Shown: positions 38,601-64,000 of the stretch, piece after piece | Numbering within the stretch: the stretch's first letter is position 1 | Layout: each line of letters begins with the position of its first letter | From: a virus | Direction: 5' to 3' (one strand) | Length of the DNA: 64,000 nt | IMG/VR virus record: IMGVR_UViG_3300031688_000003 | Location: 1 to 64,000 of that record | The notes under the pieces: generated by a model | The model's database searches: none | Told to the model about the DNA's origin: nothing | The model's input: the letters and a program-made list of their open reading frames with translations, nothing else | Translations under genes and position numbers: made by a program

Positions 38601-39244
38601 CATTTAGTTTAAGTTGTATATCATTAATGACATATATCCCTGATAGTAATTTCCAAGCAGGATTAACAGCATTATATGGAATTGCATTCCCTATAGCGGA
38701 CCATTGTTTAAAAAGTGATATTAGTAGTATGACTGCTTTAGATGTGTCAAATATGTTGATAGCTGATTTAACAGGAATAGCAGATTTTACTGCTTTAACT
38801 AATTTGGGTTGTTATGATAATCAACTCACAAGCCTTGATGTAAGTCAAAATACTAATTTATTAACTTTATTCTGTTATGATAATCAAATCACTTCTCTTG
38901 ATGTAAGTAATAATACTGCTTTAACACATTTGTATTGTTATGACAATCAACTCATAAGTCTTAATGTAAGTTCTAATACTGCTTTACAATTTTTGAGGTG
39001 TCGTAATAATTCAATCACAACACTTGATGTAAGTACTAATACTGCTTTAATTTATTTAGATTGTTTGAATAATCAACTTACATCACTTAATATAAAAAAT
39101 ACTAATAATGCAAATATGTTGGTTAATAGTTTTTTAGCAACTAGTAATTTACTAACTACTATTCTTTGTGATAATCCAGGAACTGCAACTACTACATTTA
39201 CAGTTGCAGCAGGATGTATTGACGCAGGTGTAACATTTATATAA
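32648..39244 (+). CDS. giant tail appendage/receptor-binding protein with Cys-rich repeats, FN3 and four LRR modules
   Basis: GCxDxxAxNYD repeats; FN3 (LNWSP...YDIRYRA...YEFQVRSKC); LxxLxCxxNxLTxLDVSxNT repeats in four IPDxNF-capped blocks. Confidence 0.75.
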   Translation: MALTYCNANNGAGSTCMIAFDERCNSQGGEVNLYFGNKIHHVYISQNSTVTDTTLYVPTVSMPASLTYSYDMIQTGVNPSTWQTQEYIYVCGGFQTPAIYDFTSGADQPDWAQGCFSGPCSLAANCVTIQTIDFDGNPVSGFPIETDLAVGATVTDMQGYAYFTGVQSVTPYDIFGDTISFPGTCIEYLVTQLVGICEFTPTINCICGCDDPAADNYDATANYYNFEDCPCTYPTLGCMDTAACNYDASATSDDNSCVYPGCTDPDALNYDSSAGCDDGSCVSQPSCDTAYGENNPTDNLTDVDVKRIETEARFADNVYKHFQARRYGMTSPCETSLDGIASEKYLCFWEDKKEKEYTGFNITREVFKPLIPGTPPAAGTYPAWVDPLCGLISKGQLTVYFYYDGTSMGVQAVKDAHATTELWMQSLIGLGFTGSHYHTIVNGERWLDWGTSAITGIFNNAGTNTSTTLPCSNPNDPSCGPGRPCGGCGVSADPNDGITGACQCSGWAGGKMSRTLKVQDNFQNGDCPTHFYDAYTKNSVCNTWVGTDGWAPKGPIVTWQGMAPPAATEQVLVVCFADETEIPGDKINNDVNFACYHGRGSTTGVASDWNLATISGVISPAWKADYNKYIEIYNEFEGRSCNHSLNCYIYPSLPVNVSAPHRPFPLHAIGAVTSGNRPVQDGTYLTNTAPVNTMSNTSIAAIELPGSNLYWNEPNTVTVHSFGYGGLDNYGWGGTFTSAAFTQEGFTSDLNNFFTLSLYECNDNECLIFDVVNQNGVLIEDYEIILDGKDVGKTNSFGRYTHIITKASINTEHTAQLCECFTTSGSCAQQRLLITASEKCPTAACTVPSKQCTCNAPGNLQVVTSYNSTLLNWSPSISTETTITYDIRYRAVNVTTPNTWIEITSVASTSYTITGLLTFTEYEFQVRSKCGTIISDWNATQTFTTITACPIIDCLLSSCATATSYTLGYNYTSIGELDITGATGTNGVWGVIWGTNADLEIGNIVNGGSTSTTMVPGTASTYPGDGIVNTLITETATGLTPNTYYWRAYITITNMPNCLESQYSDVCTYVTPSSITNPPSQCLIPDNNFEQALMDIGLKSQGAYTGSIDFSAVNTVTTLNVSIKGITDLTGIECFTALQSLDCSVNSLTSLNLVANTALTFVNCGANQLTSLNVTANTALLDLRIYANSLPSLDITNNTALTTLYGANNLLTSIDVSNNTALISLSIHANQLTALDVSANTALTILSCGSNQIVSLDCTTLVNLVELACENNPPMNFLDVTNGNNSNMPMGDFIANNTPSLMCISVDNVAYSNTNWPAPLYTDVGDTYNNPCVVVSLCTIPDSNFRNALDINQPQLAGQWVNTNQIDQALLTPITVISVLSSGINDFTGIECFTGCTSLNVAANSAPTINLTSLVLLKSLRMSSLNQTNSLTGNTIDLSNNVLLTFLECENNQLATINLTANTALEDISVGQNNLTSLDVTTCVSLTRLKVWYNQLTSINLGFNVVLDELNVQSNNLTTLSLTNNVLLTTLKAFYNNLTTLDLTTNTILEDASISYNNIAGSLDLSNNVLLEWLIAAHNNLTSVTLPSTATLILVDLENNDISQIDTSNNAGLETLKLTGNQLECLDVSSNVVLTQIYCQFQRLGMTPTLDILNLANGNNTNMTDANVRIGGFGSSNPNINGCVTVDAVAYATTNWTTWVDFGQIFNLGCAPLDCGTSAPMTYIPDNAFESYLTATYSIAFPIADHCLTSDISGITALSMNNLGITDLTGLQDFTAVTSIAINDNTLTNTFLNLTGNIALTHLYCDNANIVSINVTQCSALLYLGLGGNQITTIDLTNNLALTGLNFINNQFTTLDVSVNTALTSINVSNNLLTSIDVSTNTLLQYLTCSFNQLTSLDVSNNTTLYVIKCQNNSLTSLDASNSTTLTWLQCENNQLTTLNVKNGNNSNMSTSNFITTNNPNLICIDVDNVSYSTTNWTNIDATSSFSLSCISLMTYIPDSNFQAGLTALYGIAFPIADHCLKSDISSMTALDVSNMLIADLTGIADFTALTNLGCYDNQLTSLDVSQNTNLLTLFCYDNQITSLDVSNNTALTHLYCYDNQLISLNVSSNTALQFLRCRNNSITTLDVSTNTALIYLDCLNNQLTSLNIKNTNNANMLVNSFLATSNLLTTILCDNPGTATTTFTVAAGCIDAGVTFI
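37862..38740 (+). repeat. 60-bp near-identical direct repeat (37862-37921 and 38681-38740)
   Basis: 56 of 60 nt identical by manual alignment, in the caps of LRR modules 3 and 4. Confidence 0.85.
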
Positions 39245-47033: not shown

Positions 47034-50000
47034 ATGGCTAAAAAACAAACTCCAAACCCATCATTACCACAACAGACTTCATCAACAGAATCTAATCTGT
47101 TTATGAAAGGAATGATAAAGGACACCTTCCCTTCTATATCTGGAAAAGAAGTATGGGAACATGCTATAAATGTTATTAATAATTCAATTGATGGTGACAC
47201 TGGAGTTATAGGAAATGAACCAGCAAATTTTGAATGTGCAGAAATTCCATATACTATAATAGGGTCAATACATATTTATGGTGATCATTGGGCTATTTTT
47301 TCTACAGATGACTTTTCCTCTGAGATAGGTACATTTGATGATAGTAAATGTGAATATACAAGATTAATAAATGATCAATGTTTAAACTTCAACAGGGAAC
47401 ATTTAATAATAGGAGCTGCTAAAGAAAACTTTGAATGCAAGTATCAAATATATTGGGATGATTCAGTAAATCCATCTAGAACTTTAACACTAGAAGATCC
47501 TCCATATTTAAGAATTGAAGTATCTGGACCAAGTTTAAATGGTGCTCCTTGTTCTATATATGAAAACATACAACCACTTACACTAGATTGTGAAAGAATA
47601 AGACTAGCCCCTTTAATTGATACACCATGTTTAGATCTTCAAAAAGCTCCAGAAGGTGGTTCATTAAGAAATGGTATGTATCAAGCTTTTATTGCTTATA
47701 CTATTAATGAACAAGTATATGGAGACTTTATTGGTATTTCAAATCAACAGTCTTTATTTGAACATGATGATAGTGCAGGCTCTTTAATACTAACTTTATC
47801 ACACCTAGATAAAAACTTTGATAATTATAAACTTGTAATTTTAGGTAATAATCAAGAAGAATTTAAATTTTCTGAAGTTGGTGAGTATAGTACAGAACAA
47901 ACAACTATTAAACTAGATTATCTTGATCAAAAATTAAAGTCTGTTCCTACTGAGTATATGAATAAATTAACACCTGCATTAGAAAAGTCAAAAGGTATGT
48001 TTGTTGTCAATGACTATTTAGTTAGAACACAACCTACAAATCAATTTGATTTTAATTATCAACCTCTTGCAAATAGAATAGCTTGTAACTGGACATCTGT
48101 AGAATATCCAGCAGATTATTATTATAATGGAGGTAATAAACCAACATTCCTAAGAGACGAAAGATATGCATTCTTTATAAGATTCATATACAATACGGGT
48201 GAACGCTCATCATCATACCACATACCAGGAAGAGCTGCTACATACTATAGTGGAAGTGGTGTGTCTATGTTAGAAACTGATGTTATACCTGGAGATCCTA
48301 ATGCATTAGATCCTACTGATCAAATATTTAAGGTGCATAATACAGCATTTGTTTCACAATTAAATGTAAATACAGTACAACCTGATGGTGGAATTCTCAG
48401 GACTAGAGGTGAAATGGGCTATTGGGAATCAACAGAATTATATCCGCAAGATGCAGTTAGGTGGGGGGATCTGTGTGGTATGCCAATTAGACACCATAAG
48501 ATGCCTGATGAAAACACAGCTAATAATGGTACAACTGACAGAGCAACTCCAGGTGGAACTGGTATATATAATATTGCTGTAGAATTTACAGGTATACCAT
48601 GGCCAAGAGATAATGCAGGTAATCTAATACCTAACATTGTTGGTTATGAATTTTTAGTAGGATCAAGAGAAGGACATAAGTCTATTTTAGGAAAAGGTAT
48701 TCTTAAAAACATGGAACAATATATACCTTCTGATCCATCAGCAAGTGACGGATCTACATCTTTCTTTATACCTAATTATCCATATAATGATTTAACATCT
48801 GATCCATATATAAAAGGTCCTGGTGGTGGAGGTAGTGTAGGTTATGATAGTTGGTCAGGACTTGGTTATGAAGATTGGCTTCAAGGATGTGATAATCCAA
48901 CAGGTCCCTATAATAGATATTCAAATAGTGTATTTACATTTCATTCTCCAGATTTAATGTTTAATAGACCTTTCTTAAATGCATATGAATTAAAGTCATA
49001 TGGTGTTATATCAGGAACTCAAACAGGAAGATTTAAACCTTCAGAAAAACATCCAGGAGAAAAACTATTAAGAAACTCAACAGCTGTACTTGCAGCCTTC
49101 ATAGGTGTAGGATATGCTATATATGCCATGAGAGGTTCTACAGACCAAAAGATGACTACAGGACGTGTTCTGGATATGGGTTATAGAGAAGAAGGAGAAA
49201 TTACAAAACGTAGTGGAAATAATGGTACTTTTAGTGGAGGTGGTGCTTGGACAAATTTGGCTGGTTCATCTTATAATACAGGAACTTGGACTGGAGCAGG
49301 TGGTGGTAAAGGTACATTTAATGCATCAGCACCTAATAATGATAGGTGGCAATGGACTAGTGCTAATCAAATATCTGCAGCAAATAGAGCAAATTCACCT
49401 GGTACAGGTACTTATGATACTGCAGCCAATGGTTTGTTTCTTGGTTTAGGAGGAATTACTGGTGGAGCTGCATCAAATAAAGCAGGTGCTGTAACATGGC
49501 AAGCTGCACAAGCTACTAACTGGCAAGGTCAAGCTGGATCAATAGGACCTGGTCAAGAGATAGTTCAAAAAGGTACAAAGTTTAGTAATAAACCTTTTTG
49601 GATGGGTTTAATCAGTGGTGCACAAGAATTTATGAATTTTGTATCAACTGGTGGTCAAGAAATTATTGATTTAATTTATAATTTAACAAGCTTCAAACAA
49701 TATGTTTATAAATATAATAGTCATGGTTGGTACAGAAACATGTCAGCAAATCCAAATGGATCAATATTTAGACACTCCGTAAATAAATCAAGGTATTTAA
49801 ATGGTGCTATTTCTCAACTCACCCCAAGCATTAGAATTAATAATTTAAATAGACCTTTAACTGTAGCAGTTGAACTTGAAACTAATGGTAATGTAGATGT
49901 AAATGGACTACCCACTTCTAGTTTACCTTTACCTACGGGAGATAATTCTAAATATACTATAGGTACTGCACCAGGACAATGTGATTGGACTAACCCAGGA

Positions 50001-53000
50001 GGGGCAACTAGCTCAGGGATTGCAGCTCATTATTGTGCAATGAAGTATAATATAGATAATCAATATGGTCAACTAGAAGATATAAAACAAATACCTATTA
50101 GAGGATGCGTTGAATTTTTTGAAGACCAAATATTACTAGATGCAAGTGGTAACCCAATTATAAATAACTTAATAAGATTTAATTCTAAACCATTATTTGG
50201 TGGTGACTGCTATGTAAATAGATATACAGAGAAAGCTATTATGCCATTCTTCTGGGACTATTTAGCTGAAAATGAAAAAGATGGATTTGTATGGGATTAT
50301 AGATTATATCCTAATGTACCGTTTCCAACATATTGGATGAATACTGAAAAGTATAGACTTGATGAATTAACAAAACAGTTAGGTGGTGTTAATTTCGCTT
50401 TTGCAATAGCTTCAGGTTTTAATGGTGCCTTCCCTAATGATTATTATTACATGGATAGAGATCCAGCATCATGTAGTGGAGGTGGTTTATTTAGTAGCTT
50501 TAATGATGCAACAAATAGTAATCCAGGTTCATTATTTACTATACATGATGCATACATGTATCTTCACTGTAATGGAATTAATGATTTCTTTGTTGAGTCA
50601 GAATTAAATTTAGCTCAAAGAGATTGGGGGGAAGATATTGAAAAAAGACATTATGATAGTTTAACCTTTTCTGCATTGACAGATCTATTTCATGTAGATG
50701 GAATAAAGAAGGGTAATTATTATAAGTATGATAAGTCATTAAGTATTGAACAAAACTATAGTAGGACATTATCATGGGGGTTCATCCAGCCTAGATCATA
50801 TGATCCTACAGTAGCTGAAAAATGTTATATAACATGGAATAAAAGACTTGTGTATTCATTACAAGCTAAGAAAGAGGCTAAGAAGGATTTCTGGAGAGTC
50901 TTCCTTCCATTAAATTATAAAGAATTTAAGGACTCAGTTAATACTATTAAACCAATTAGCAAGACTGGTGCCATTGTATTATTTCCAAAACTTTCTCCAC
51001 AAATATTTACAGGTAATGATGAACTAACTACAGATGCTGGAACTAAAGTTGTTCTTGGTGATGGAGGATTATTTGCTGAAAGAAACTGGAGGGATATAGT
51101 AAACTCAGATATATCTCATGAATATGGATCATCTGAAAGTTCAAGAGCAGTGTTAAATACACCAATGGGATTATTTTTCATATCTCAAGAACAAGGAAAG
51201 ATATTTCAAACAGAAGGTAATTCACTAATCAATATTACTAATACAGGAATGAAGTGGTGGTTTAATAAATACTTACCATCACAACTATTAGCAACGTTCC
51301 CTGATGCTGAAGCATGTCCACAGATGATTGATAATCCAGTAGTATCTGCTGGTTGTCAAACTGTATATGATACAAACAATGATATTGTTTATTTTTCAAA
51401 AAGAGATTTTGCAGTAACTAATGCATTTGCAAATCAGTCAAACAACTGTATAGAGTATGTTCCATGTGAAGGGTTTTATCTAAATGAAACAATATGTAAC
51501 GGTGCATCACAAATAGTAACATGTCCAGATGGATATACTTATAATTCTGTTTCAGAAATGTGCGAGTTGATTACTTATGATTTACCTTTTGGACCACCAG
51601 CACCTGCATGTAAATTAGATATTGTTCTTTCTATTGATGCTTCATACTCAGTACCTTTACAATCTAATGTTAATAGCATGAGGTTAATTGTTCAAGGTAT
51701 TTTAGATGTGTTTGATAATGCTATGTCATTAGGTGATACACAAATAGGTATTATGGCTTGGGGAACTAGAGCATATGATGAAGGATCATTTAATGCTACT
51801 GCAATTGCATGTAATGGATTAAGAGCACCTGTAGCATTAACTTTTAACCCAAACTTATTAAATCAAACTACAGGTTTCATGAGTGAGTATACTTGTGCTT
51901 CTGGTACTTCAGCTTGTTGTCCAGGTGTACCTTGTGGTGGTAATGATTGTAATGTTACTGGGGGTACAGGATATGGAGATGCAGTATGGTCAGGTACAAA
52001 CTGGTTATTTAATCCTACACCAGGACCAGGTGGTACAGGTGCAAGACCTAATGTACCTAAAAAATTAATAATATTAAATGATGGTTGGGATGCAACATCA
52101 ACTGGTTGGGGTGGTACTAATCCAGATTCTACTGGAGCAGATAGAGCACTTACAAGACCTAATTATATAAACCTAGGTCAAACTTCTTCATTTGTAGCAA
52201 CACCAACAACACCTCCTATGGTAGCAACAGCTCCTGATACAGGTGTTGTAGGTAACATAAGTGCTGCACAACCTGATAACTTAGTTCAGTGGATACAAAC
52301 TAATATTCATGCAAATGCACAATATCAAGATCCTACTAATTCAAACTTTCTAGGTCAGTTAGAAATAATCCCTGGATGGTTAAAAAATAACAATACTCCA
52401 ACTGCAGCTGAAGAAGCTTATGCACAAAGTATTGCTGGATATGATGCTATAACAGGAGATCCTAATCCATATATGGCTGGTGACTTTCAAGCAGCTAATG
52501 TACAAGGTATTATAAATGACTTAGTTGAAAAAATATGTCCAGGTATTTTACCAAATTGTCCATCTGGTTGTACACCAGTTATACAAGGAGGTGTACCAAT
52601 GTGTGAATGTATAGATGAAGTTCCTGCTACATATGAAGATGTATTAACTTATATACCTTACCAATTAGAGAATCCTACATACTTCCAAGATGTTTCATGG
52701 ACAGTTAGTTATGATCCTAAAGCAAAAGCATGGATCTCATTTCATGATTGGCATCCTGAATTAGCATTCAATAGTATCAATCATTTCATGACATCTAAAA
52801 CAACAACAACTGAAATCCCACAATGTCCTCCTGGATATTCATTTAATAGTACTTTAGATGAATGTTGTATCACAGTAGCAGGATCTGATCCAGCATTTGT
52901 TGAAGTAAAATATATTCCATCAGATACAACTGTAGTAGATTCAGTCCAAACTGCTTTTTCAGTAGATACAGATATTGCATTAGTAATGGATGTATCTGGA

Positions 53001-54599
53001 TCAACTGCTCTACCTGGATGTATAATACCTTTCCCTACTAATTGTACATTTGGTGTACTTAGTGCACAAGTAGATTTTTGTACAGCATTTGTAAATGTTA
53101 TGTCTCCTGGTATGGCATCTGGAACTAACAATGTAAGAATTGGATTTGGAGTATGGGATAATGCAAATAGTGCTCAGGTAACAGGTTTAACAAGTAATGA
53201 TTCTACTCTAATAGATCCTATAGCAGGTTCAATAAGCACCTATGATGAAACGTCTGCTTCATATACAGCAGGAGGTACTAATTATGAAACAGCTGTATTA
53301 AGAGCAAGAGCAATGTTATCTGGATCAACAGCAACAAAAAAAGTTGTAATAATAATTACAGATACACAAAATAATACATGTGCTGCGTCCCCTCCAAATA
53401 ATATTTCTGCTGATTTATGGACTTGGAATGCAGCAGGTGGTGGTGATGTTGATACAATTGCTGTATTTGCTGATACTGTTGCTCCTGCAAATAATGGATG
53501 GTGGACTAATTTAAATTGTTTAGTTCAACTTGGTACTGCTGCACAAAGTATTGGTAATGATGCATTTGCAGTTGATTCTTCAAATTATGGAGATGTTGCA
53601 GTTAGTGTTATGAATTCACTTATTAGTTGTGATTGTCCAGTAAATACAGTTCCAGATATACCATCTATTCTTTGTAGTCCTGATCCTGGTGACCCATTAC
53701 CACAATGTGTATCATGTGAATGTCCAGCTGGATATACGCAAGTACCTGTTAATCAAGTTTGTAATTCATTAAATCCACCAACATGTAAGAAGGTAGATTG
53801 TAATTGTCCACCTATACCTGTATTAGATCCTTCATTAGCTACTACTTGGTTTGAGGCTGGAACACAATGTGATGATTTATTTTTAGTTGATACACCTGGT
53901 TATGTAAATCCAAATCCACTTATATGTAATTGGGAATATAAACAATGTGTACCTGCAAATTATACAGTTGGTGGTATGTGGAAACACAATGTAAGAAATG
54001 ATCTGTTTGTAAACTATTATGGAGAAGATTTCCCTTGGGAAGTTACACTAATAGAAAACACTGGTCAAGTTGTCAATACTCTAAGAAGTATAGAGTACCA
54101 ACAAGAATCATATGTATATAAGAATTTTAACTTACCACGTCCTCAGCAGCTTATAGGTACAGATAGATTCCATGATTTAGATTGGAACTTTGATGAAACA
54201 ATAATATATAATTCAGAACAGGTATCAGGATTATTAACTCTTGATCTTACTCCTAAGAATAATATTGTTTTACTTAATCAGTATCCTATAATTAATAATC
54301 CAACTGATATACAAATCCTATATTCTAAAGAAGAACAGAAATATAGATTTAATCAGTTCTGGGATATTACAGATGATAGAGGTGAGTTCACTGGAGTTGA
54401 AAGACCTATATGGATAACAACATTAAATGGGTATATTAAAAACTTAAATCAAGCAAATCTTAATTATATTAAAGCACCTTTGCAGCGTAAGAAGTTTAGA
54501 CATTACTATAATATGATTGTATTAAGAAAGAACGTATCAGGAGACAGAAAGATGTTACTTAAATTAAATAATACTAAAATGAATATATCATTTAGATAA
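47034..54599 (+). CDS. tail stabilisation/muzzle protein (P22 gp10-like) with two vWA insertions
   Basis: N-terminal FMKGMIKD...HAINVIN, propeller-type body, C-terminal KKFRHYY; MIDAS-like IDASYS and MDVSGS. Confidence 0.75.
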   Translation: MAKKQTPNPSLPQQTSSTESNLFMKGMIKDTFPSISGKEVWEHAINVINNSIDGDTGVIGNEPANFECAEIPYTIIGSIHIYGDHWAIFSTDDFSSEIGTFDDSKCEYTRLINDQCLNFNREHLIIGAAKENFECKYQIYWDDSVNPSRTLTLEDPPYLRIEVSGPSLNGAPCSIYENIQPLTLDCERIRLAPLIDTPCLDLQKAPEGGSLRNGMYQAFIAYTINEQVYGDFIGISNQQSLFEHDDSAGSLILTLSHLDKNFDNYKLVILGNNQEEFKFSEVGEYSTEQTTIKLDYLDQKLKSVPTEYMNKLTPALEKSKGMFVVNDYLVRTQPTNQFDFNYQPLANRIACNWTSVEYPADYYYNGGNKPTFLRDERYAFFIRFIYNTGERSSSYHIPGRAATYYSGSGVSMLETDVIPGDPNALDPTDQIFKVHNTAFVSQLNVNTVQPDGGILRTRGEMGYWESTELYPQDAVRWGDLCGMPIRHHKMPDENTANNGTTDRATPGGTGIYNIAVEFTGIPWPRDNAGNLIPNIVGYEFLVGSREGHKSILGKGILKNMEQYIPSDPSASDGSTSFFIPNYPYNDLTSDPYIKGPGGGGSVGYDSWSGLGYEDWLQGCDNPTGPYNRYSNSVFTFHSPDLMFNRPFLNAYELKSYGVISGTQTGRFKPSEKHPGEKLLRNSTAVLAAFIGVGYAIYAMRGSTDQKMTTGRVLDMGYREEGEITKRSGNNGTFSGGGAWTNLAGSSYNTGTWTGAGGGKGTFNASAPNNDRWQWTSANQISAANRANSPGTGTYDTAANGLFLGLGGITGGAASNKAGAVTWQAAQATNWQGQAGSIGPGQEIVQKGTKFSNKPFWMGLISGAQEFMNFVSTGGQEIIDLIYNLTSFKQYVYKYNSHGWYRNMSANPNGSIFRHSVNKSRYLNGAISQLTPSIRINNLNRPLTVAVELETNGNVDVNGLPTSSLPLPTGDNSKYTIGTAPGQCDWTNPGGATSSGIAAHYCAMKYNIDNQYGQLEDIKQIPIRGCVEFFEDQILLDASGNPIINNLIRFNSKPLFGGDCYVNRYTEKAIMPFFWDYLAENEKDGFVWDYRLYPNVPFPTYWMNTEKYRLDELTKQLGGVNFAFAIASGFNGAFPNDYYYMDRDPASCSGGGLFSSFNDATNSNPGSLFTIHDAYMYLHCNGINDFFVESELNLAQRDWGEDIEKRHYDSLTFSALTDLFHVDGIKKGNYYKYDKSLSIEQNYSRTLSWGFIQPRSYDPTVAEKCYITWNKRLVYSLQAKKEAKKDFWRVFLPLNYKEFKDSVNTIKPISKTGAIVLFPKLSPQIFTGNDELTTDAGTKVVLGDGGLFAERNWRDIVNSDISHEYGSSESSRAVLNTPMGLFFISQEQGKIFQTEGNSLINITNTGMKWWFNKYLPSQLLATFPDAEACPQMIDNPVVSAGCQTVYDTNNDIVYFSKRDFAVTNAFANQSNNCIEYVPCEGFYLNETICNGASQIVTCPDGYTYNSVSEMCELITYDLPFGPPAPACKLDIVLSIDASYSVPLQSNVNSMRLIVQGILDVFDNAMSLGDTQIGIMAWGTRAYDEGSFNATAIACNGLRAPVALTFNPNLLNQTTGFMSEYTCASGTSACCPGVPCGGNDCNVTGGTGYGDAVWSGTNWLFNPTPGPGGTGARPNVPKKLIILNDGWDATSTGWGGTNPDSTGADRALTRPNYINLGQTSSFVATPTTPPMVATAPDTGVVGNISAAQPDNLVQWIQTNIHANAQYQDPTNSNFLGQLEIIPGWLKNNNTPTAAEEAYAQSIAGYDAITGDPNPYMAGDFQAANVQGIINDLVEKICPGILPNCPSGCTPVIQGGVPMCECIDEVPATYEDVLTYIPYQLENPTYFQDVSWTVSYDPKAKAWISFHDWHPELAFNSINHFMTSKTTTTEIPQCPPGYSFNSTLDECCITVAGSDPAFVEVKYIPSDTTVVDSVQTAFSVDTDIALVMDVSGSTALPGCIIPFPTNCTFGVLSAQVDFCTAFVNVMSPGMASGTNNVRIGFGVWDNANSAQVTGLTSNDSTLIDPIAGSISTYDETSASYTAGGTNYETAVLRARAMLSGSTATKKVVIIITDTQNNTCAASPPNNISADLWTWNAAGGGDVDTIAVFADTVAPANNGWWTNLNCLVQLGTAAQSIGNDAFAVDSSNYGDVAVSVMNSLISCDCPVNTVPDIPSILCSPDPGDPLPQCVSCECPAGYTQVPVNQVCNSLNPPTCKKVDCNCPPIPVLDPSLATTWFEAGTQCDDLFLVDTPGYVNPNPLICNWEYKQCVPANYTVGGMWKHNVRNDLFVNYYGEDFPWEVTLIENTGQVVNTLRSIEYQQESYVYKNFNLPRPQQLIGTDRFHDLDWNFDETIIYNSEQVSGLLTLDLTPKNNIVLLNQYPIINNPTDIQILYSKEEQKYRFNQFWDITDDRGEFTGVERPIWITTLNGYIKNLNQANLNYIKAPLQRKKFRHYYNMIVLRKNVSGDRKMLLKLNNTKMNISFR

Positions 54600-57500
54600 T
54601 GGCATATAGTATAGACGGATATAAAAGAGATAGTAAGGATGTAAAGAAACCTTCCAACTTGATACCTTCAGGTAACATTACTATGAAGGGTGTAGACTTT
54701 CCTGTGATGGGTACAGACAATCTTGGTAATCAACAACTTATGCAACCTGGTCTTGATTATCAATTTCCTGGTAGTGAAGTCTTTGAACAACCTATGCAAA
54801 ATCTAACGCAAGATAAACCTAAGAATCAAGTAAAGAAAAGGAAAGTAGATAGAGATAATAAATTAATCACAAACTGGACTTCAGAAATGGGTGATGTATC
54901 TTCACACAAAATGACTAGTATGTCATTTACTGATGATGATGGTAATCCAATATATGTTGCTATTCCAATGTTGTTTCCTACTATTGAAGGACAAGAAACT
55001 CCTGATCCAGCATCATGGACTCAATTTGCAGAAGGTGATGAGATGTCTGCTTTTGAAATGGCTATGCAAAGAGGTGAAGTGTATTACTTTAATTCTGAAC
55101 AAGAATCACATAAGTTTGCTAAAGGTTCTTGGAAAACTCCAAACTTAAAGAAAAGAGATGGTGGTTTAATAAAGCATCAAGACATAGGGTCTAACAATCA
55201 TATTATAAATAATAGAGACTTAAGTGACCCTAATAGGAAGTTTATGAAGCCTACAATAAACTTAAGTAATTATGATGAGCTAGAAGAAACATTAGGAGAT
55301 ACGTCTTGGGTGGACATAATGTCAAAAATGTCTGAGGAAGAGTTTAACAATTTTGTTGCACCTTATAGTAAAAGAACAGATAGTTTAAACAATCTTAAAA
55401 GGTTTACAGGTGATGAGAGATGGTGGGCTGGTAATCTTGCTAATGTTATTTCTGATGAAGAATATGCAAAGGCAAATGAAAATCGTAAATGGACAAGAGA
55501 CAACCATAGAAAAGGGAACCTTCCTAATTATAGTGAAGTGGCACCACTTGGAAAATCTACAGAAGATGTATTTTATGATGCTGAAAAAGCTTACTATAAT
55601 ACACCAGTACACACTAAAGAAGAACTTAATGCTGACTTTGATACTGCTTATCCTTATACATTTAATTCAGTTGCTGGAACGGATCCTTTAAATAAGATAC
55701 CATGGAAGAATGAGATGAAGGATGATCCAGAAAAGTGGGAGGGTTCGTGGTCTGATTATATAAGAAGTACAGATATACAACCTGACTATTATGAAATAGG
55801 GGACATAACCCTTGCTGAAGAAAGTAATCCATTTCATTTTGTATATGACGGTGGAGATCAAGATGGAGAGACAGTTAATACAGCAGTTCCAGATAAAGGG
55901 ATAAAAGATATACAAGATGTACGTAGTCATGATGAATATATGAAATGGTATGATCATCATAAAAAGAGCGGTGTTCTTAATAATAAATCTAAAAAAGATA
56001 TGGATTATTGGGAAGCTTTAACTGATAAAGATAATAATGTATGGACATCTAACTTTAAATATACAGATGCATCACCAAGATATAAGGAACTAGATTTCCT
56101 TGAAAACCCTAATATGAATATATCAGATGGGGAAAGAGGGAGATTATCTGATAGATCTGAACAGTCGTTATCAAGATTTGAAACATTAACGGGTAGAGAT
56201 AGAAAGATGTATAATGATAACCATTTAAATGAAATGGAATATTTTAATTCAATTGGTATATTTGAAACTCCTTTAGATAAACCTATTGCCTACTATCCTA
56301 AAGAAGAAAGGATGGAGTTAATGAAAGTATTAAATGATTATGAAAAGAAACAAAATTCTGAAAATACAGCTTGGACAATAGATTATAAAAATTCTGAGTT
56401 TTATGGTAAAGAAAGAACATATAAGTATGGTGGTTCACTTCCAAAAGCTCAATTAAAGCAAGTTAAGAATGCATATGCTTTAACTAAGAGTTTAATTAAA
56501 GGTAAGCAGTTAGGTAAGGTTTTAAATAAATCATTAAAACTTAATGAATTTATTCCTAAAGCATCAAAGGCTCCAATCATACCAAAAAATAAAATAGCTT
56601 ATGTAACTCCTATAAATACAGATGTAAACATAAACATAGGTAATGATATAATATCTAATAACAAAACTGTAAATGCTGATAATAAATTTAGTTTACAATC
56701 AGATGTCTTTAAGAACAAAATACCATTAACAAGAGTATTAAGTTCTAAAGGTTTAAGATTTACGGATGGTAAATTATTTAGTTCAACAGAACCACATACA
56801 CATTATAAATCAGACAGCAGAGGTGAGGAATTTCCTCTTCGTTTAAAATCAACAAATAGAAATACCACACATTGGTCTTATGGTCATATAGGTAATCCTG
56901 GACATGGGGGTGGAAGTTGGTCAAAGAAGTCTACAGCTATCATTAATGATTATGAAAATTTGTCAAAATCTGGACTTGCCCTAGATCTTGATCCAACTGA
57001 TACATGGTTCTATTCTAAAGGTAATTTTGAAATACCTGCTAATTCATTAATCTTGACTAGAGATAAGACGTTATATAAGAAAATAAAAAAAGAAACAAAT
57101 ATTACAAATATAAAACTATTTGAAAATACTAATAATGAAGATTTTGAAAGTATTGTAAACTCATATTCTACAAGAGGAGGAAAAGGAGCATATACTAGAC
57201 CAACGGATGATATGATAAATCCTAAAGATCAGTTTTTTAATGCAGGAGAAGGTGAAATGATAATGAGAGACTATATGATAAAAAACTATAGTAAAGGAGA
57301 TGATGTATCTTTAACACAGACTGCGGATCACTATAAACCTCATCAGTGGCAAGGACATGATTTTGATTGGGTACACCCCTTTACTGGTAAAAAATCAGGT
57401 ATTACAACAATGCATCCAGATTTTGATCATTCTTATATGGATCTTGGAGATCCTTTTGGAGGAGGTCAGAGTAAGGCACACTCTGGTTCTCCATTATCTA

Positions 57501-60500
57501 CTATAGAAAGAATGGAATATAATTGGGGAGATAATATGACAACTAATCATGGATTATACAGTAGTAACAACAGATGGGGCAATGGTGATAGATCAGGAAG
57601 CTTAGATATATTAGCAAAATTACCAAAAACCATACAAGTAAATGAAATGGAGAAGGTAATGAAAACCTATAAAAATCAACGTGAAGGTCTTAGACTTCAA
57701 CAAGAACTAGCAGAATTAAACGGGTTTAAATCATATAAAGAATTCAAGAACTCAATATCAAAACAAGAATGGTTAGATTTTAAGAGAGATGGTGGCTCAC
57801 TAAACAAAGCACAATGGTGGAATCCTAAGAATGCATATGCTTTAGCTAATACTATATCTAAATCATTTAAACCAGCTAAATCACTTCTTCCTAAACCTAG
57901 TTTTAAAAATATAAACTACCAAAAATTATTACCTTTTACTGAATCAGGTTCTACTCTTGTTCCTCAAACCCATATGAGTAGTGGGAAGGAAGGAACTAGT
58001 ATGGATCTATCAGAGACATTAAATTCTATTTATGCTGATAACAAACCTATGTGGTTTGGTCCTACTGCAACAAGTAATAGATATAGAATGACAGATGATA
58101 ATAATAAATTTATTCCAACAATTCCTGGACAAGGTGGACTTTTTCAAGTAGGTTCTGGAAGACTTGGTAATACAGGTAAACCAGGTTTTGATGAAATACC
58201 ATTTACAGAAGCAACAATGCCATTTGGTGGTCTGGCAAATGATGGTTACCACCTTAATCTAGAAACTGGATTGCCTAATTACAATGATCCACTAATGGAT
58301 CACAAACTTTTAACAAAAAATGCTTTTCAAAATAAGATTGATGGTGTTTTTAATCCTAATACTAAGTTTAAAATATTTAAGAGTGACCTCTCCAAAGGTA
58401 ATCATGCAATGCACCAGAAATGGTCAGACAAAGAACTTGCTAAAATTAAAGCAGATGGGTATGATGCTATTCAACTTGTAGATCAAAATGGTAATCAGAT
58501 AGAAAATATATTACTTAATAAAGAAAAGTTTAAGATAAATAAGATCAATGATATGGATGTACACATTGACAATCCTGAATTCAAATATGGTGGATCACTA
58601 CCTAAGGCTCAATGGTACAATCTAAAGAATGCATATAATATCGGTAAGGGTTTAGTAAATACAATAAAGAGTCCTTTTATTAATGATTTAGTGCAAGGTA
58701 GTAATAAACTCTATAGGGGTATAGGACCAGCTGGATATAATAGTGCAGTAAATACTGGTAAGATACTATCAAATGTAAACCCAACTGCAGTAAATGAAGG
58801 TGCTTTTAATTTAACAAAGAACTTTGGAAATAAAACTTTTTTCACTCCTAATGTTGAAACAGCAAGTAAATATGGTGATGGTTATATAGCTGAAATAAAT
58901 AATGATGTTAATGATTTTAGTAATAGATATAATTCAGACTGGAGTCAGTTTACAACTGACCCTGTTTTCTTAAGTCAATCTAACATATATAAAATGAATA
59001 TGTTAGGAAATTATAAAAGAATACTTTCTCAAAATACAGTAGGAGATCATAGTAAAATAAACTTTTTAGATAATGTTAAACTTAGGACAAATTATACATC
59101 TAGTACAGGTTTAGATTATTATGGTCATAGAAATGTTAAACATAATATAAAAGGAGGATGGCCTACACAGTTAGAGGTTGAAAAACTAAAAAAAGATTCA
59201 GGTTTAACACTAACACAAGATAACTTAAGAAGTTATGTAGAAAAGATTGGTAAAGTTGGCGGTGGTAAATATCCTAAAACAACTTTATATAGATATGGTG
59301 ATATGGCTACAAATGCAGCTGGTAATAAAGACATGGGTTACTATTCAGCAGATCCACTTGATCCACTTAGATACAGTGAAAGAGCAGATAGAACTTTTAA
59401 TGGAAGTGTTTTTAAAATTGATGTTGAAAATGAATTACTACCAGAATTTTATAAAGGAATAGGATTTGGTAACCAAGGTAAAGAACCAGGATTTCAATCA
59501 GGAACATTATTTAAAGAATTTGAAGTTCCAGAAGATTTTTTAGGTAAATTTGGAAATCAACAAACTTTCAAAACTTTATCTGATTATAAAAAATGGCTTA
59601 ATACAGTTAAGCAATCTGGAGGATCATTAACTAAACATCAAGTTCCTAAATTAATTAAAGGTGCATTAGACTTAGGTAAGAAGGTGAAGAATATTATTTC
59701 TCCTAAAAATGTTAACTCAATTATAGATTGGAGTAAAGTCAGTCCTGCAATATTAGCTAATAAAAACTTATTAAGTGAATATGCTGATATAGAAATGGCA
59801 ACTAAAGCAAATGCAACATGGATGAAGAATGATGATGGTACTTCTTTCTGGGGTACACCTCAACAGTTTATTCAAGTAAATAGTGAGGCCTTTAAAAACT
59901 CTTATCCAGAAGGTTATAAAAGAGTATTCAGAGGTGAGTCAGGTACTTTGAAATTAACAGATCCTCTTTATTCAGGAGCTGCAGATATAGAATCAGGTAA
60001 TAAAGGTATATTTACAGCAAATGAAGGTTTAGCTAAACTATATACAAACGATTATAGATTAGGGTCAAATAGTAGTATTCTTCAATTAGCAATACCTAGT
60101 GTTAGTGATGGTAGCAAATACTTAAATATAAACGGTCTAGGTAATGATTGGACAGATCTTAGTTCTATAGGTACTACAAAAAAGACTCTTGAACTAAATA
60201 TAAAGAATTTAGAAAATAACATAAAGAAGGATGCAGAAGGATTTCAATGGGCATCTGGCAGTGGTAGTTTAGAAAGTTATGATGTAAATAAACACTTACA
60301 AAGTTATAAAGATTTTTACAATAACTATGATGAGATAGTTGCTAATCCTATCTATAAGAAATTACTTGAGTTTAAAGAAGCTGCTTGGGAAAATGACAAA
60401 ATTCTTAATGGGGGAAATTTAGCAGGACGACAAAGTTTTGGAACTGGAGATGTAGGTGACTTTATGGAAAAATCAGGTTTAAATAATATAAGATTAAACT

Positions 60501-62488
60501 ATATAGATGATGGTGGTTTTGGAGATGTAACACTTAACAACCAGATACCAGGTAACTATCTAAAATCTCTAACAAATAACAATGGTAGATTTAATCTAAA
60601 AAACCCCAACATGAATAGACAAAAAGGAGGATCACTACCAAAAGCTCAATTGCAATATTATGATAAAGCTAAAAAAACATATGATTTTGTTAAAGGATTA
60701 TGGACTGTTGCTAAGCCTGTTTCAAAACTTGTAATACCAGGAAGGTCAGCTACTGATGTGGCTCATAAAATAAAACCATTAATTAATAGTTACCAAAAAC
60801 CAAATTCTGCTGGTGTTGCAAGTTTGATAAATCCTAACTGGACTGTTGATGAAGGTGGATTATATGAAGGTATGGATAGTAGAGTTAGAACATTTATAGA
60901 ACCAGGCCAGTATGGAATAAATGAACCTATAAGACTAATGGATGGTAATACTAGATTTCATTATGGACAGAGTCAAGGAAAAGATTGGGACGAATGGTAT
61001 AGAACATTTCAGCATAATAACCAATCTTTATATCCAGAGATAGCTGAAAAAAATCTTACTCTTGAAAATGGAACATGGAGACCTAAAACACAGCTTGAAC
61101 TTGATGATGATATACCAACAGAAGTTTGGGATCCTGTACAACAGAAATTTGTTAAACAAAATTTGAAAACAAGACCCTTTGCTGATCCCACATCCCTATA
61201 TAGAGCTGTTAATGCTCCTGATATTCAAACTGCTGAAAAGTTTGGAACTACAATTCCTTCACTCAATTCTGGTGCAGATGGGAGAAGGACAGGATATACC
61301 GACTTACAAAAAAACACTCCATATGATGTTTTATTTACAACACCCAATGCAGGTTGGATAGGTGGTTCAGGTGTTGATGATCCATATAATTTATTTAATT
61401 TATATGCAAAAAAAGATCAAGGAAAATTTATAGTTAAAATGCCAAGAACAAATGGTGCTGTTGAGAGTTTAACTCAAATTAATAATAGGACAGATATTTT
61501 AAACAATTCTCAATATCCGTACAGTGGAAACACTGGTTCAGTTTGGAATGAAGCAACTGGTAAATTTGATATACCTACACATCTTGGTTCAGGTATATTC
61601 AATACAGTCTCTGGTAAGCCTGATTTAAGTTTAATACCAGAAGGATCAATTGTTAATCCAAATTATTCAAGTTTTAATGGTAACCAGATAACTCCAATAT
61701 TTGGAACAAAAGGAACAACAGTTAGAAACGCACAAGATGTATTACCAATAGAAGACTATTTCAAAAAACTAAAAGAAGATCCTAATTGGAAATTTAATAA
61801 AGGAGGATCTGTAAAAGCTCAATATGTAGGTGAAACTAAAGAAGATATAGATTGGACAGGTACAACTCAAGGTGAGATACCAAGCAATGAACCAGACTTA
61901 GATCTTTTAAAGCAAGGTGTTGGTTATGCTGAAAGTCTTAATGGTGAGTTGATGATTAATTCTCAATCTACTGCAACAGGATTATATGGTCAAAGATTTT
62001 CTGAAGTAAAGAAAGGTAAATTATATGATGGAACAAGAGAAGAATTTGCTGTAGATCTTGATGCTCAAAACTCTTTATTTGAACAAAGATACAATGGAGA
62101 AATAAAAGATATACCAGGATTAAAACAAAGTGGTATAGATCTATATGAAGAGTATAACACACAAATAACAGACTTTCCATACTCAACAACTGAAGTTGCT
62201 GCACTGGTAAACTTCATAGGTAGACAAGGTACAAGAGACTACCTAGGATACGTTCTAAGAGACGGTAATACATTAGAATCAGTATTCCCTACTAAGTATG
62301 GATCAAAAGCAAATCAGTCAAATAAGACTCCAAATGAATATATCACTAAATTTAATGAAGGTTTAAATATAAAAAAGAAAGGAGGTGAAGTAGATAAGCT
62401 TACTGAAAGATTGATAAAGAAATATGAAGAAGGAGGAACACTTACACCTGCAGGAACTAAACATTTAAAGTCTCTAGGGATGATATAA
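54599..62488 (+). CDS. modular virion cargo polyprotein with repeated GGSLxKAQ linkers, ART-like domains and a lysozyme-like domain
   Basis: Position after the muzzle; seven linker copies; Y/F-R-G, aromatic-S/T and GYDAI...E motifs; AES...STATGLYGQ. Confidence 0.65.
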   Translation: MAYSIDGYKRDSKDVKKPSNLIPSGNITMKGVDFPVMGTDNLGNQQLMQPGLDYQFPGSEVFEQPMQNLTQDKPKNQVKKRKVDRDNKLITNWTSEMGDVSSHKMTSMSFTDDDGNPIYVAIPMLFPTIEGQETPDPASWTQFAEGDEMSAFEMAMQRGEVYYFNSEQESHKFAKGSWKTPNLKKRDGGLIKHQDIGSNNHIINNRDLSDPNRKFMKPTINLSNYDELEETLGDTSWVDIMSKMSEEEFNNFVAPYSKRTDSLNNLKRFTGDERWWAGNLANVISDEEYAKANENRKWTRDNHRKGNLPNYSEVAPLGKSTEDVFYDAEKAYYNTPVHTKEELNADFDTAYPYTFNSVAGTDPLNKIPWKNEMKDDPEKWEGSWSDYIRSTDIQPDYYEIGDITLAEESNPFHFVYDGGDQDGETVNTAVPDKGIKDIQDVRSHDEYMKWYDHHKKSGVLNNKSKKDMDYWEALTDKDNNVWTSNFKYTDASPRYKELDFLENPNMNISDGERGRLSDRSEQSLSRFETLTGRDRKMYNDNHLNEMEYFNSIGIFETPLDKPIAYYPKEERMELMKVLNDYEKKQNSENTAWTIDYKNSEFYGKERTYKYGGSLPKAQLKQVKNAYALTKSLIKGKQLGKVLNKSLKLNEFIPKASKAPIIPKNKIAYVTPINTDVNINIGNDIISNNKTVNADNKFSLQSDVFKNKIPLTRVLSSKGLRFTDGKLFSSTEPHTHYKSDSRGEEFPLRLKSTNRNTTHWSYGHIGNPGHGGGSWSKKSTAIINDYENLSKSGLALDLDPTDTWFYSKGNFEIPANSLILTRDKTLYKKIKKETNITNIKLFENTNNEDFESIVNSYSTRGGKGAYTRPTDDMINPKDQFFNAGEGEMIMRDYMIKNYSKGDDVSLTQTADHYKPHQWQGHDFDWVHPFTGKKSGITTMHPDFDHSYMDLGDPFGGGQSKAHSGSPLSTIERMEYNWGDNMTTNHGLYSSNNRWGNGDRSGSLDILAKLPKTIQVNEMEKVMKTYKNQREGLRLQQELAELNGFKSYKEFKNSISKQEWLDFKRDGGSLNKAQWWNPKNAYALANTISKSFKPAKSLLPKPSFKNINYQKLLPFTESGSTLVPQTHMSSGKEGTSMDLSETLNSIYADNKPMWFGPTATSNRYRMTDDNNKFIPTIPGQGGLFQVGSGRLGNTGKPGFDEIPFTEATMPFGGLANDGYHLNLETGLPNYNDPLMDHKLLTKNAFQNKIDGVFNPNTKFKIFKSDLSKGNHAMHQKWSDKELAKIKADGYDAIQLVDQNGNQIENILLNKEKFKINKINDMDVHIDNPEFKYGGSLPKAQWYNLKNAYNIGKGLVNTIKSPFINDLVQGSNKLYRGIGPAGYNSAVNTGKILSNVNPTAVNEGAFNLTKNFGNKTFFTPNVETASKYGDGYIAEINNDVNDFSNRYNSDWSQFTTDPVFLSQSNIYKMNMLGNYKRILSQNTVGDHSKINFLDNVKLRTNYTSSTGLDYYGHRNVKHNIKGGWPTQLEVEKLKKDSGLTLTQDNLRSYVEKIGKVGGGKYPKTTLYRYGDMATNAAGNKDMGYYSADPLDPLRYSERADRTFNGSVFKIDVENELLPEFYKGIGFGNQGKEPGFQSGTLFKEFEVPEDFLGKFGNQQTFKTLSDYKKWLNTVKQSGGSLTKHQVPKLIKGALDLGKKVKNIISPKNVNSIIDWSKVSPAILANKNLLSEYADIEMATKANATWMKNDDGTSFWGTPQQFIQVNSEAFKNSYPEGYKRVFRGESGTLKLTDPLYSGAADIESGNKGIFTANEGLAKLYTNDYRLGSNSSILQLAIPSVSDGSKYLNINGLGNDWTDLSSIGTTKKTLELNIKNLENNIKKDAEGFQWASGSGSLESYDVNKHLQSYKDFYNNYDEIVANPIYKKLLEFKEAAWENDKILNGGNLAGRQSFGTGDVGDFMEKSGLNNIRLNYIDDGGFGDVTLNNQIPGNYLKSLTNNNGRFNLKNPNMNRQKGGSLPKAQLQYYDKAKKTYDFVKGLWTVAKPVSKLVIPGRSATDVAHKIKPLINSYQKPNSAGVASLINPNWTVDEGGLYEGMDSRVRTFIEPGQYGINEPIRLMDGNTRFHYGQSQGKDWDEWYRTFQHNNQSLYPEIAEKNLTLENGTWRPKTQLELDDDIPTEVWDPVQQKFVKQNLKTRPFADPTSLYRAVNAPDIQTAEKFGTTIPSLNSGADGRRTGYTDLQKNTPYDVLFTTPNAGWIGGSGVDDPYNLFNLYAKKDQGKFIVKMPRTNGAVESLTQINNRTDILNNSQYPYSGNTGSVWNEATGKFDIPTHLGSGIFNTVSGKPDLSLIPEGSIVNPNYSSFNGNQITPIFGTKGTTVRNAQDVLPIEDYFKKLKEDPNWKFNKGGSVKAQYVGETKEDIDWTGTTQGEIPSNEPDLDLLKQGVGYAESLNGELMINSQSTATGLYGQRFSEVKKGKLYDGTREEFAVDLDAQNSLFEQRYNGEIKDIPGLKQSGIDLYEEYNTQITDFPYSTTEVAALVNFIGRQGTRDYLGYVLRDGNTLESVFPTKYGSKANQSNKTPNEYITKFNEGLNIKKKGGEVDKLTERLIKKYEEGGTLTPAGTKHLKSLGMI

Positions 62489-62567: not shown

Positions 62568-64000
62568 ATGGCAAAAGAATTTCCAGATAATAAAACTTTA
62601 GAAGTTTACCAGCAAGGTGGTGCTACTCAGAGTGTTAACTCATGTCCAGAAGCTATATCTGATGACATGATAAATATAGATAATAGAGAACGTTCTATTG
62701 TAAGATCTAACTATAGTAAATCAAATACAGAAAGCAAATGTGGAAATTGTATCTTTTTTGACATATCTAATAGGATAAAAAAGTGTGCAGATACTAAGTC
62801 AGATAATAAAGGATACTGCTGGGATCAAGAGTTTGTATGTGAATCTCAAAATATTTGTGATATGTGGGAAGAAGGTGGTCCAATCAAGTCTAACAAAGAC
62901 TCATATGCACAAGATGAATCCTCTAATGAGTTTGAACAAAATAAAGCAGAAGTTGAACAGATACAAACTCAGAAACAGATGCCTGTGTTTAATGAGTCTC
63001 AACAACAACCAATGGCTCCGCAACAAGGTGCACCACCTCAAGCAATGCCTCCTCAACAACAAGCTCCTGCACCACAAGAACAAATGCAACCTTCATTTGC
63101 ATATGGTGGATCTTTAAGGAAGGCTCAAGAGCAACATGAAACAAATCCTATAAATCCTGTAACAGGATTACCTTTTGAAGATGATATGTTGGCAGCAAAG
63201 AAAGAAAGAGATTTACAAGCTGCAAAAGAAAGAGAAGCAATATTAGCTCAACAAGGTCAAGATAATAATACAGATATATATGATGAAGCAAATCCTAAAG
63301 AAGCAGGTTCATCACTTAAAGATAAATATAAAAACTGGAGAACTAAAAGAGCAATAAAAAAATATCAAAAGAGTTTAATCCCAGAAGCTCCATTTATGAT
63401 GTATAACTCTGATCCTTCACAAGGTGTTCTAGGAGAGATAGGTAATTGGATGAAAAGTGCGAAGAAAGACTTTACTACTAATTGGGATAATAATAATAAG
63501 AAAAGTAACTATCAACAATTTAAAGTTTCAAATCCACATGATGATGTAAGATTCTTTGATCAAGATAATCCTGATGCACCACTGCTCAACTATGGCCAGA
63601 AGAATTCTAATGATTATAACAAGTTCTCTACTGACAGAACATCAGCATTTCCAGAACTATATCAAATATCATCTATGGATAATGAAGGTAACATAAGTTA
63701 CACAGGAGAGAAGTTGTTAGGGGATATGGTTGAAACAGAATACATGCCTGATGCTGTTCACATTCAACATACTGAAGATGGAACAGGAGTTACAGGAGCA
63801 TACATATATACTGGAATGAGTGATGCTGGAAAAAAAGAATATGAGTTTGTTCCTTTTGATAAAGAAAATCCTACTCAGATTTCAGTTGGACCATCTAAGC
63901 AAAAACGTGCTGAACAAGAAATGGCAGATAAGAATATATGTATAAATGCAGGTGGTGAATGGGATGCTGGAGTATGTACATATCCTGATGAGACAACTAA
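62568..64000 (+). CDS. putative virion cargo protein, partial (absent from ORF track, no stop in window)
   Basis: Manual translation MAKEFPDNKTLEVYQQGG... open to the window end (477 codons); Cys domain, Gln/Pro linker, FAYGGSLRKAQ. Confidence 0.8.
   Translation, partial: MAKEFPDNKTLEVYQQGGATQSVNSCPEAISDDMINIDNRERSIVRSNYSKSNTESKCGNCIFFDISNRIKKCADTKSDNKGYCWDQEFVCESQNICDMWEEGGPIKSNKDSYAQDESSNEFEQNKAEVEQIQTQKQMPVFNESQQQPMAPQQGAPPQAMPPQQQAPAPQEQMQPSFAYGGSLRKAQEQHETNPINPVTGLPFEDDMLAAKKERDLQAAKEREAILAQQGQDNNTDIYDEANPKEAGSSLKDKYKNWRTKRAIKKYQKSLIPEAPFMMYNSDPSQGVLGEIGNWMKSAKKDFTTNWDNNNKKSNYQQFKVSNPHDDVRFFDQDNPDAPLLNYGQKNSNDYNKFSTDRTSAFPELYQISSMDNEGNISYTGEKLLGDMVETEYMPDAVHIQHTEDGTGVTGAYIYTGMSDAGKKEYEFVPFDKENPTQISVGPSKQKRAEQEMADKNICINAGGEWDAGVCTYPDETT

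Follow-up and report, generated by a model that had tools for sequence, protein, structure and literature searches.

The DNA analysed here, positions 1-64,000 of the record IMGVR_UViG_3300031688_000003 (below, the window), belongs to a virus whose full record is a 119-kb genome. Towards the end of the window, the plus strand carries a single intact open reading frame (ORF) encoding a giant protein, P0001, which is built of modules separated by a recurring glycine-rich junction. An initial annotation, made from the sequence alone, had described the region 56429-61801 of this gene as a tandem array of five to six ADP-ribosyltransferase (ART) domains. We found that the modules are real and that two of them, M5 and M3, adopt an ART-type fold in predicted structures: M5, judged by profile comparison and by its model, is a relative of the ART-PolyVal family, and M3 appears, with moderate confidence, to represent a second ART-fold family. 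The features of the gene are listed below (positions in the window; amino acid (aa) numbers in P0001); the domain map was derived from iterative hidden Markov models (HMMs) on 178 collected proteins.

54599..62488, plus strand: the whole gene, a single intact ORF encoding P0001, a modular (polyvalent) protein of 2,629 aa that is probably carried in the virion; situated between head and tail genes and a 5,127-aa ORF with a DFDID motif
55160, 56429 (..56452), 57791, 58589, 59618, 60626 and 61802, plus strand: starts of the junctions of the GGSLPKAQ type (regular expression and six-frame scan)
54599..55159, plus strand: M1a (aa 1-187; aa 1-185 in the domain map), the conserved N-terminal module, 68-86% identity in 10 homologues
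56576..57790, plus strand: M2 (aa 660-1064), a two-part module whose family comprises about 11 proteins, with R712, S778-T779-A780 and E811 retained in its N-part
57938..58555, plus strand: M3 core (aa ~1114-1319), predicted ART-superfamily fold with invariant H1125, W1152/F1153, D1289 and Q1300-x-E1302; the full module in the domain map is aa 1096-1328
58700..59023, plus strand: M4a (aa 1368-1475), a small domain from a 32-member family; R1373 in 32 of 32, Ser or Thr at T1416 in 23 of 32, E1432 in 28 of 32
59210..59614, plus strand: M4b (aa 1538-1672), from an 8-member family; R1565, S1583-A-D-P and E1640-F-[E/D]1642 each in 8 of 8
59702..60613, plus strand: M5 (aa 1702-2005), ART-PolyVal-like putative ADP-ribosyltransferase domain with R1778, F1805-T1806, D1971/D1976 and a helical insertion of about 100 residues
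60716..61069, plus strand: M6a (aa 2040-2157), fold unassigned; 7-member family, model confidence 40-78 (predicted local distance difference test, pLDDT), no informative match
61184..61801, plus strand: M6b (aa 2196-2401), from an 8-member family; R2202 in 7 of 7, T2247-T2248 (Thr in 7 of 7), E2289 in 8 of 8
61895..62485, plus strand: M7 (aa 2433-2629), the conserved C-terminal module, 45-92% identity in about 19 homologues

The junction pattern GG-x(2-4)-[AH]Q, typically GGSLPKAQ, occurs seven times in P0001 and three times in each of the next two ORFs (62568-67532, with one junction starting at 63105, and 67535-71260), that is, 13 times over the three ORFs, and in no other ORF of at least 300 aa in the genome. 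The limits set by the initial annotation, 56429 and 61801, correspond to junction motifs at aa 611 and 2402. A first search yielded 25 homologues with conserved N- and C-terminal modules and with middle modules in varying order and combination. As the same junction motif divides the same kinds of modules, differently ordered, in about 25 homologous giant proteins, we consider the module boundaries in P0001 to be real. At least nine distinct modules are present in P0001, and its relatives also carry LysM, YkuD, SLT and ART-PolyVal domains. It has the properties of a polyvalent protein, being a large phage protein with several unrelated effector domains and with variable architectures among its relatives.

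The modules are not copies of one another, since BLAST between them detects similarity only at the junction and in the approximately 25 residues that follow, hhalign comparisons of all pairs among M2-M7 stay below 3%, and the DNA-level repeats in the gene are the junctions only. The confinement of DNA repeats to the junctions also rules out recent tandem duplication as the source of the array. Thus, the "tandem array" holds as a succession of real modules, but not as a set of mutually similar units. The junction itself may serve for processing of the protein or as a joint for recombination. Each of the 19 motif strings listed in the initial annotation occurs exactly once in the ORF 54599-62488 (plus strand), within a few bases of where it had been placed (PLTRV, 56723; TTHWS, 56864; KADGYDAIQL, 58448; KLYRGIG, 58706; TLYRYGD, 59282; RVFRGE, 59921; YLKSLTNNNGRFN, 60557; SLYRAV, 61193). 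What had been counted as module 4 comprises two domains (M4a and M4b), and the same is true of module 6 (M6a and M6b).

The relation of M5 to ART-PolyVal emerges from profile comparison. The Pfam model PF18760 (ART-PolyVal; gathering score 31.2 bits) has no match at E up to 10 in the whole P0001 or in any module, and none in a six-frame search of the whole genome; scans of the whole protein and of each module with Pfam, PHROG and NCBIfam revealed no ART family. ART-PolyVal matches below the Pfam threshold are seen in two homologues (P0004, 902-992; P0024, 777-855), and the domain at 321-471 of the protein P0126 passes this threshold with 58.1 bits. M5 can be aligned with all three at the lead-in, over its first two strands and at the tail, and the iterated M5 HMM also covers ART-PolyVal domains of this type. 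When the profile of the M5 family was compared by hhalign with a profile seeded on P0126 321-471, the match reached 98.2% (E 4e-14, 69 columns); none of the other modules showed such a link to ART-PolyVal by hhalign. The lead-in and the tail taken in the initial annotation for marks of ART-PolyVal are indeed common, as WMKNxDG...QF.Q and KSxxGNNGxF, to M5 and to the domain passing the threshold; the "GYDG(I)...E ending" attributed to the same family was seen in none of the ART-PolyVal domains examined.

The active site of ART-PolyVal consists of His in strand 1, Tyr in strand 2 and Asp in strand 5 (PMC5512222). M5 has Arg/Phe-Thr/Asp instead: the His position is occupied by Arg (R1778) in 128 of 140 M5-family sequences, the Tyr position by Phe (F1805) in 127 of 140, followed by Thr, and the D1971 column is Asp in 125 of 129. 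The retention of R, F and D1971 across the family argues for a working site. In the AlphaFold model, which has pLDDT 81-97 over most of the module, a strand with R1778 is followed by a helix, a strand with F1805-T1806, a helix, two strands, the helical insertion of about 100 residues, and two strands around D1971/D1976. Hence M5 shares with ART-PolyVal the lead-in (WMKNxDG..F.GTPxQF.Q), the core of strands 1 and 2, the tail and the setting in a large multi-domain phage protein, whereas it differs in being below Pfam detection, in its site and in the insertion that splits the fold.

Structural comparison agrees with this assignment. Among solved structures, Foldseek with the M5-M6 model gave no match at E<=1e-3 and only weak ART rows. 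For M5, the best structural matches are ParT (6d0h), the anti-CRISPR chain 6kyf and RES toxins. In a viral structure library, nine matches at E<=1e-3 were obtained for M5; they include "PolyVal ADP-Ribosyltransferase" (E 8.7e-5, prob 1.00) and ART-PolyVal-like proteins, some of them from uncultured crAss-like phages. A profile search of the M5 alignment against the sequences of solved structures returned nothing meaningful. Taken together, the profiles and the model indicate that M5 is an ART-PolyVal relative with an altered site and an ART fold. At E<=0.001, 570 representative proteins match an M4-M6 query, mostly via M5. The M5 subfamily is widespread and, as ten short proteins of the M5 type have no Pfam match, it seemingly lies outside Pfam coverage.

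M3 belongs to a family of eight known sequences, all of which retain P-Q-x-H1125-M, M-W1152-F1153-x-P, D1289 and Q1300-x-E1302. In the corresponding part of the model (pLDDT 53-88), H1125, W1152/F1153 and QxE fall on predicted strands (model residues 59-63, 87-91 and 236-241, respectively), which we take to be strands 1, 2 and 5 of the ART fold. Approximately 40 of the 50 best matches to solved structures are ART-superfamily chains, and the matches extend over model residues 50-255, covering the whole domain. They comprise MbcT (5.3), diphtheria toxin (5.2), ParT (5.1), NatT (5.1) and PARP1/2 (5.0-5.1), as well as other PARPs, tankyrases, Scabin, cholix toxin, exotoxin A and Tpt1. ART-PolyVal proteins also came up in an independent viral library. 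The top solved-structure match, 9k3a_B residues 1419-1604, is a domain of the cyanophage A4 pre-ejectosome and itself ranks with ART-fold chains; the ejection protein of this unrelated podophage may thus carry an ART-like domain. The term "ADP-ribosyl" is absent from the searched passages of the paper on the pre-ejectosome (PMC12002296). A search of solved-structure sequences with the M3 profile gave nothing meaningful.

At moderate model confidence, then, M3 has an ART-superfamily fold with a split beta-sheet core and would represent a rare second ART-fold family, unrelated-looking to M5. The initial annotation had singled out modules 3 and 5 as its strongest calls, and both were borne out, module 5 by homology to ART-PolyVal together with the fold, and module 3 by the fold of its model.

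For the remaining modules proposed as ARTs (2, 4a, 4b and 6b), the evidence is a conserved pattern of Arg, Ser/Thr and Glu, so that of the "five to six ARTs" two are supported, but the others share only this pattern with R-S-E enzymes. The residues concerned are R712/S778-T779/E811 in M2, R1373/T1416/E1432 in M4a, R1565/S1583/E1640-x-E1642 in M4b and R2202/T2247/E2289 in M6b, and their spacings are atypical. A combined pattern, an aromatic-Arg pair followed after 15-60 residues by hydrophobic-aromatic-Ser/Thr, is found four times in P0001 (mean of 0.06 in shuffled sequences, none of 500 reaching four) and once in the remaining long ORFs of the genome (24,450 residues); this excess is overstated, because the pattern was defined post hoc, after the motif list of the initial annotation. 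None of the four modules has a Pfam, PHROG or NCBIfam match, and hhalign against ART-PolyVal or the M5 core gives at most 3.6%. The AlphaFold models of M4a, M4b and M6b have pLDDT below 50, M2 being outside the modelled set. The multi-module alignments were made with whole proteins, so that over each module the numbers of non-homologous and homologous rows are about equal, and the low confidence for M4 and M6b is probably due to such shallow and noisy alignments.

For M2, weak leads in a protein atlas point to Tox-ART-HYD1 (0.82) and TNT (0.77). The module also has strongly conserved His-rich motifs (RNTTHWSYGH..HGGG, PTDTYFY, SLILTRDK), and in several relatives it is split into two sub-domains. 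M4a is found in about 26 other proteins (for example P0126, P0124, P0092 and P0106) directly N-terminal of an M5 or ART-PolyVal domain, and it may be an accessory or degenerate partner of the adjoining ART. Against the HMM of the M5 core, M4a of P0001 scores 14.8 bits, a value reached by none of 300 shuffled sequences (none above 6.9), yet the median of the M4a family is only 2.85 bits compared to the shuffled 95th percentile of 2.4, and hhalign of M4a with the M5 core or ART-PolyVal gives the 3.6% mentioned above. M4a may have arisen as a half-ART from the M5 core; the score of this copy is suggestive, that of the family is not. The M4b alignment, used as a profile against the sequences of solved structures, gave no match (M2, M4a and M6b were not searched in this way), and a search for short M4b relatives found nothing. 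The relatives of M6b occur in proteins also carrying SLT or DUF192. From their residues, the N-part of M2, M4a, M4b and M6b are candidates for up to four further ARTs.

The genome setting bears on how P0001 may be used. Upstream of its gene lie those for the large terminase (TerL), a 926-aa portal protein and a major capsid protein of the crAss-like type; TerL is only about 25% identical to those of known crAss-like, Bacteroides and Flavobacterium phages, and the genome is that of a divergent crAss-like phage. A tblastn search against GenBank phages gave no match. On the 3' side follow, in this order, two giant ORFs, a 1,152-aa ORF and the 5,127-aa ORF with the DFDID motif (genome positions 74784-90167, beyond the window). 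This last ORF probably encodes a virion RNA polymerase; it is much longer than the 2,180-aa enzyme of phi14:2. The DFDID motif is a hallmark of crAss-like virion RNA polymerases (bioRxiv 10.1101/2020.03.07.982082). In crAss001, the block equivalent in position encodes giant proteins that were detected in virions (PMC10172136).

Two other giant ORFs are located at 32648-39244 and 47034-54599 of the window; one has fn3 and leucine-rich repeats (phrog_7816), the second a VWA domain and matches to PHROG "virion structural protein" families. The ORF next to P0001 (62568-63998 within the window) has a Cys-rich start and then a Gln/Pro-rich low-complexity run, containing DNA repeats at 62998-63080, before its first GG junction.

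The first approximately 70 aa of P0001 (54599-54810) are common to many otherwise different giant proteins and possibly serve as a packaging or ejection signal; residues 4-44 match phrog_36695, "virion structural protein" (E 1.5e-5). From this match and from the position of the gene we infer that P0001 is probably packaged in the virion. At the other end, the ES...GLYGQ motif of M7 had suggested a lytic transglycosylase, an idea we rejected, as hhalign of M7 with the SLT domains of relatives gave 0.2%. A scan of viral contigs with M7 found no relatives.

We consider it likely that P0001 is a polyvalent effector, probably packaged in the virion and ejected from it, which carries interchangeable cassettes, at least two of them (M5 and M3) being NAD+-using enzymes of the ART fold. 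A more generous reading, doubtful in our view, takes the N-part of M2, M3, M4a, M4b, M5 and M6b for functional ARTs that have diverged from one another and act on different targets. It agrees with the Arg in an aromatic context, the downstream aromatic-Ser/Thr and the Glu that are invariant or nearly so in the family of each extra cassette, with the strong enrichment of the combined motif in P0001, with the score of M4a on the M5 core that no shuffled sequence reached and with the weak leads from M2 to Tox-ART-HYD1 and TNT. Moreover, among the enzymatic domains of polyvalent proteins that modify proteins, ARTs are the most frequent, and as many as 12 copies have been described in a single protein (PMC5512222). 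However, the motif test was post hoc, the models of M4a, M4b and M6b are of low confidence and M2 lies outside the modelled set, and profile comparison of the extra cassettes with the M5 core or ART-PolyVal gives at most 3.6%, the median score of the M4a family on this core being low. The spacings also count against this reading: compared with classical R-S-E ARTs, the 18 aa from Arg to Ser in M4b and the 16 aa from Ser/Thr to Glu in M4a are short. It is improbable, too, that P0001 holds five or six ARTs without mutual homology, every one having a catalytic triad and presumably a host target of its own, on one packaged chain that would be cut or unfolded at the GGSLPKAQ junctions, so that a crAss-like phage would deliver a whole set of NAD+-dependent modifiers to the cell; cassettes would then pass between phages by recombination at the junctions.

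The opposite possibility, that M5 is the only ART, the likeness of M3 is a by-product of a mid-confidence model and the other cassettes are unrelated effector or structural domains, is improbable. About four fifths of the best solved-structure matches of M3 belong to the ART superfamily and span the whole domain, the viral library concurs, and the invariant His, Trp/Phe and Gln-x-Glu fall on predicted strands. Finally, the ART-fold cassettes, rather than modifying proteins, could degrade NAD+ in the manner of RES and MbcT, or could be inactive and serve as scaffolds in the ejection apparatus. RES toxins, MbcT and NatT, all of which degrade NAD+, are among the best matches of M5 and M3, and M5 does not have the canonical His-Tyr-Asp residues. 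In addition, the top match of M3 comes from a structural assembly, the cyanophage A4 pre-ejectosome (PMC12002296). On the other hand, that R, F-T and D are so well kept in about 130 M5 sequences speaks against a mere scaffold, and among the matches of M5, ParT and 6kyf score equal or higher; both, the latter being AcrIF11, are true protein ADP-ribosyltransferases. Arg in place of His at the same position is also found in the R-S-E clades of ARTs (PMC5512222). We regard an NAD+-degrading or scaffolding role as rather improbable.

If P0001 is indeed an effector with at least two ART-fold enzymes, it would be packaged in the crAss-like virion and ejected into the host. Its cassettes, each opening with a GGSLPKAQ junction and a short helix, lie between the conserved N- and C-terminal modules. 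In M5, Arg-(Phe-Thr)-Asp takes the place of His-Tyr-Asp, and a helical hairpin separates the two halves of the fold; M3 is probably an ART-fold domain, characterised by His, Trp/Phe and Gln-x-Glu. If they behave like T4 Alt, the experimental model, and like other polyvalent proteins, M5 and M3 would be brought into the cell along with the DNA and, as infection begins, ADP-ribosylate targets of the host. Polyvalent proteins are packaged and delivered with the DNA, and the several enzymes in one such protein act simultaneously on macromolecules of the host (Iyer et al. 2017, PMC5512222); from them and T4 Alt a role in host takeover or anti-defence may reasonably be inferred (PMC5512222, PMC9503650).

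P0001 resembles T4 Alt and other head-packaged ARTs (the Alt/VIP2 clade) in that it is probably a virion-delivered ART protein acting at the start of infection, and in the Arg of M5, which this clade has as well. The two differ in that neither sequence nor profile comparison revealed any similarity, Alt has a single ART, and its packaging is known from experiment, whereas that of P0001 is deduced. The small ART toxins and effectors, ParT (6d0h), 6kyf, RES toxins and MbcT, are also among the closest known systems. The gp47, gp49 and gp50 of crAss001, cargo and RNA-polymerase-associated proteins, are likewise giant, have their genes beside that of the virion RNA polymerase and were found in virions, but they are described as predicted to be alpha-helical, with no mention of ART or of GG-junction cassettes in that description, on which our comparison is based (PMC10172136).

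Multi-ART polyvalent phage proteins are already known (PMC5512222). What is new here is an Arg-type subfamily of ART-PolyVal and, at the confidence given above, a second, rare family with the ART fold, in a protein from a crAss-like phage; as the presence of several ARTs in one injected phage protein has been established before, the advance is in detail, not in kind. Cutting the relatives of P0001 at their junctions and sorting the pieces offers a route to cataloguing phage effectors. Few viruses of the gut are more abundant than the crAss-like phages, whose giant virion proteins mostly lack an assigned function; at least two putative ART-fold cassettes in such a protein are concrete candidates for enzymes that may act in the first minutes of infection.

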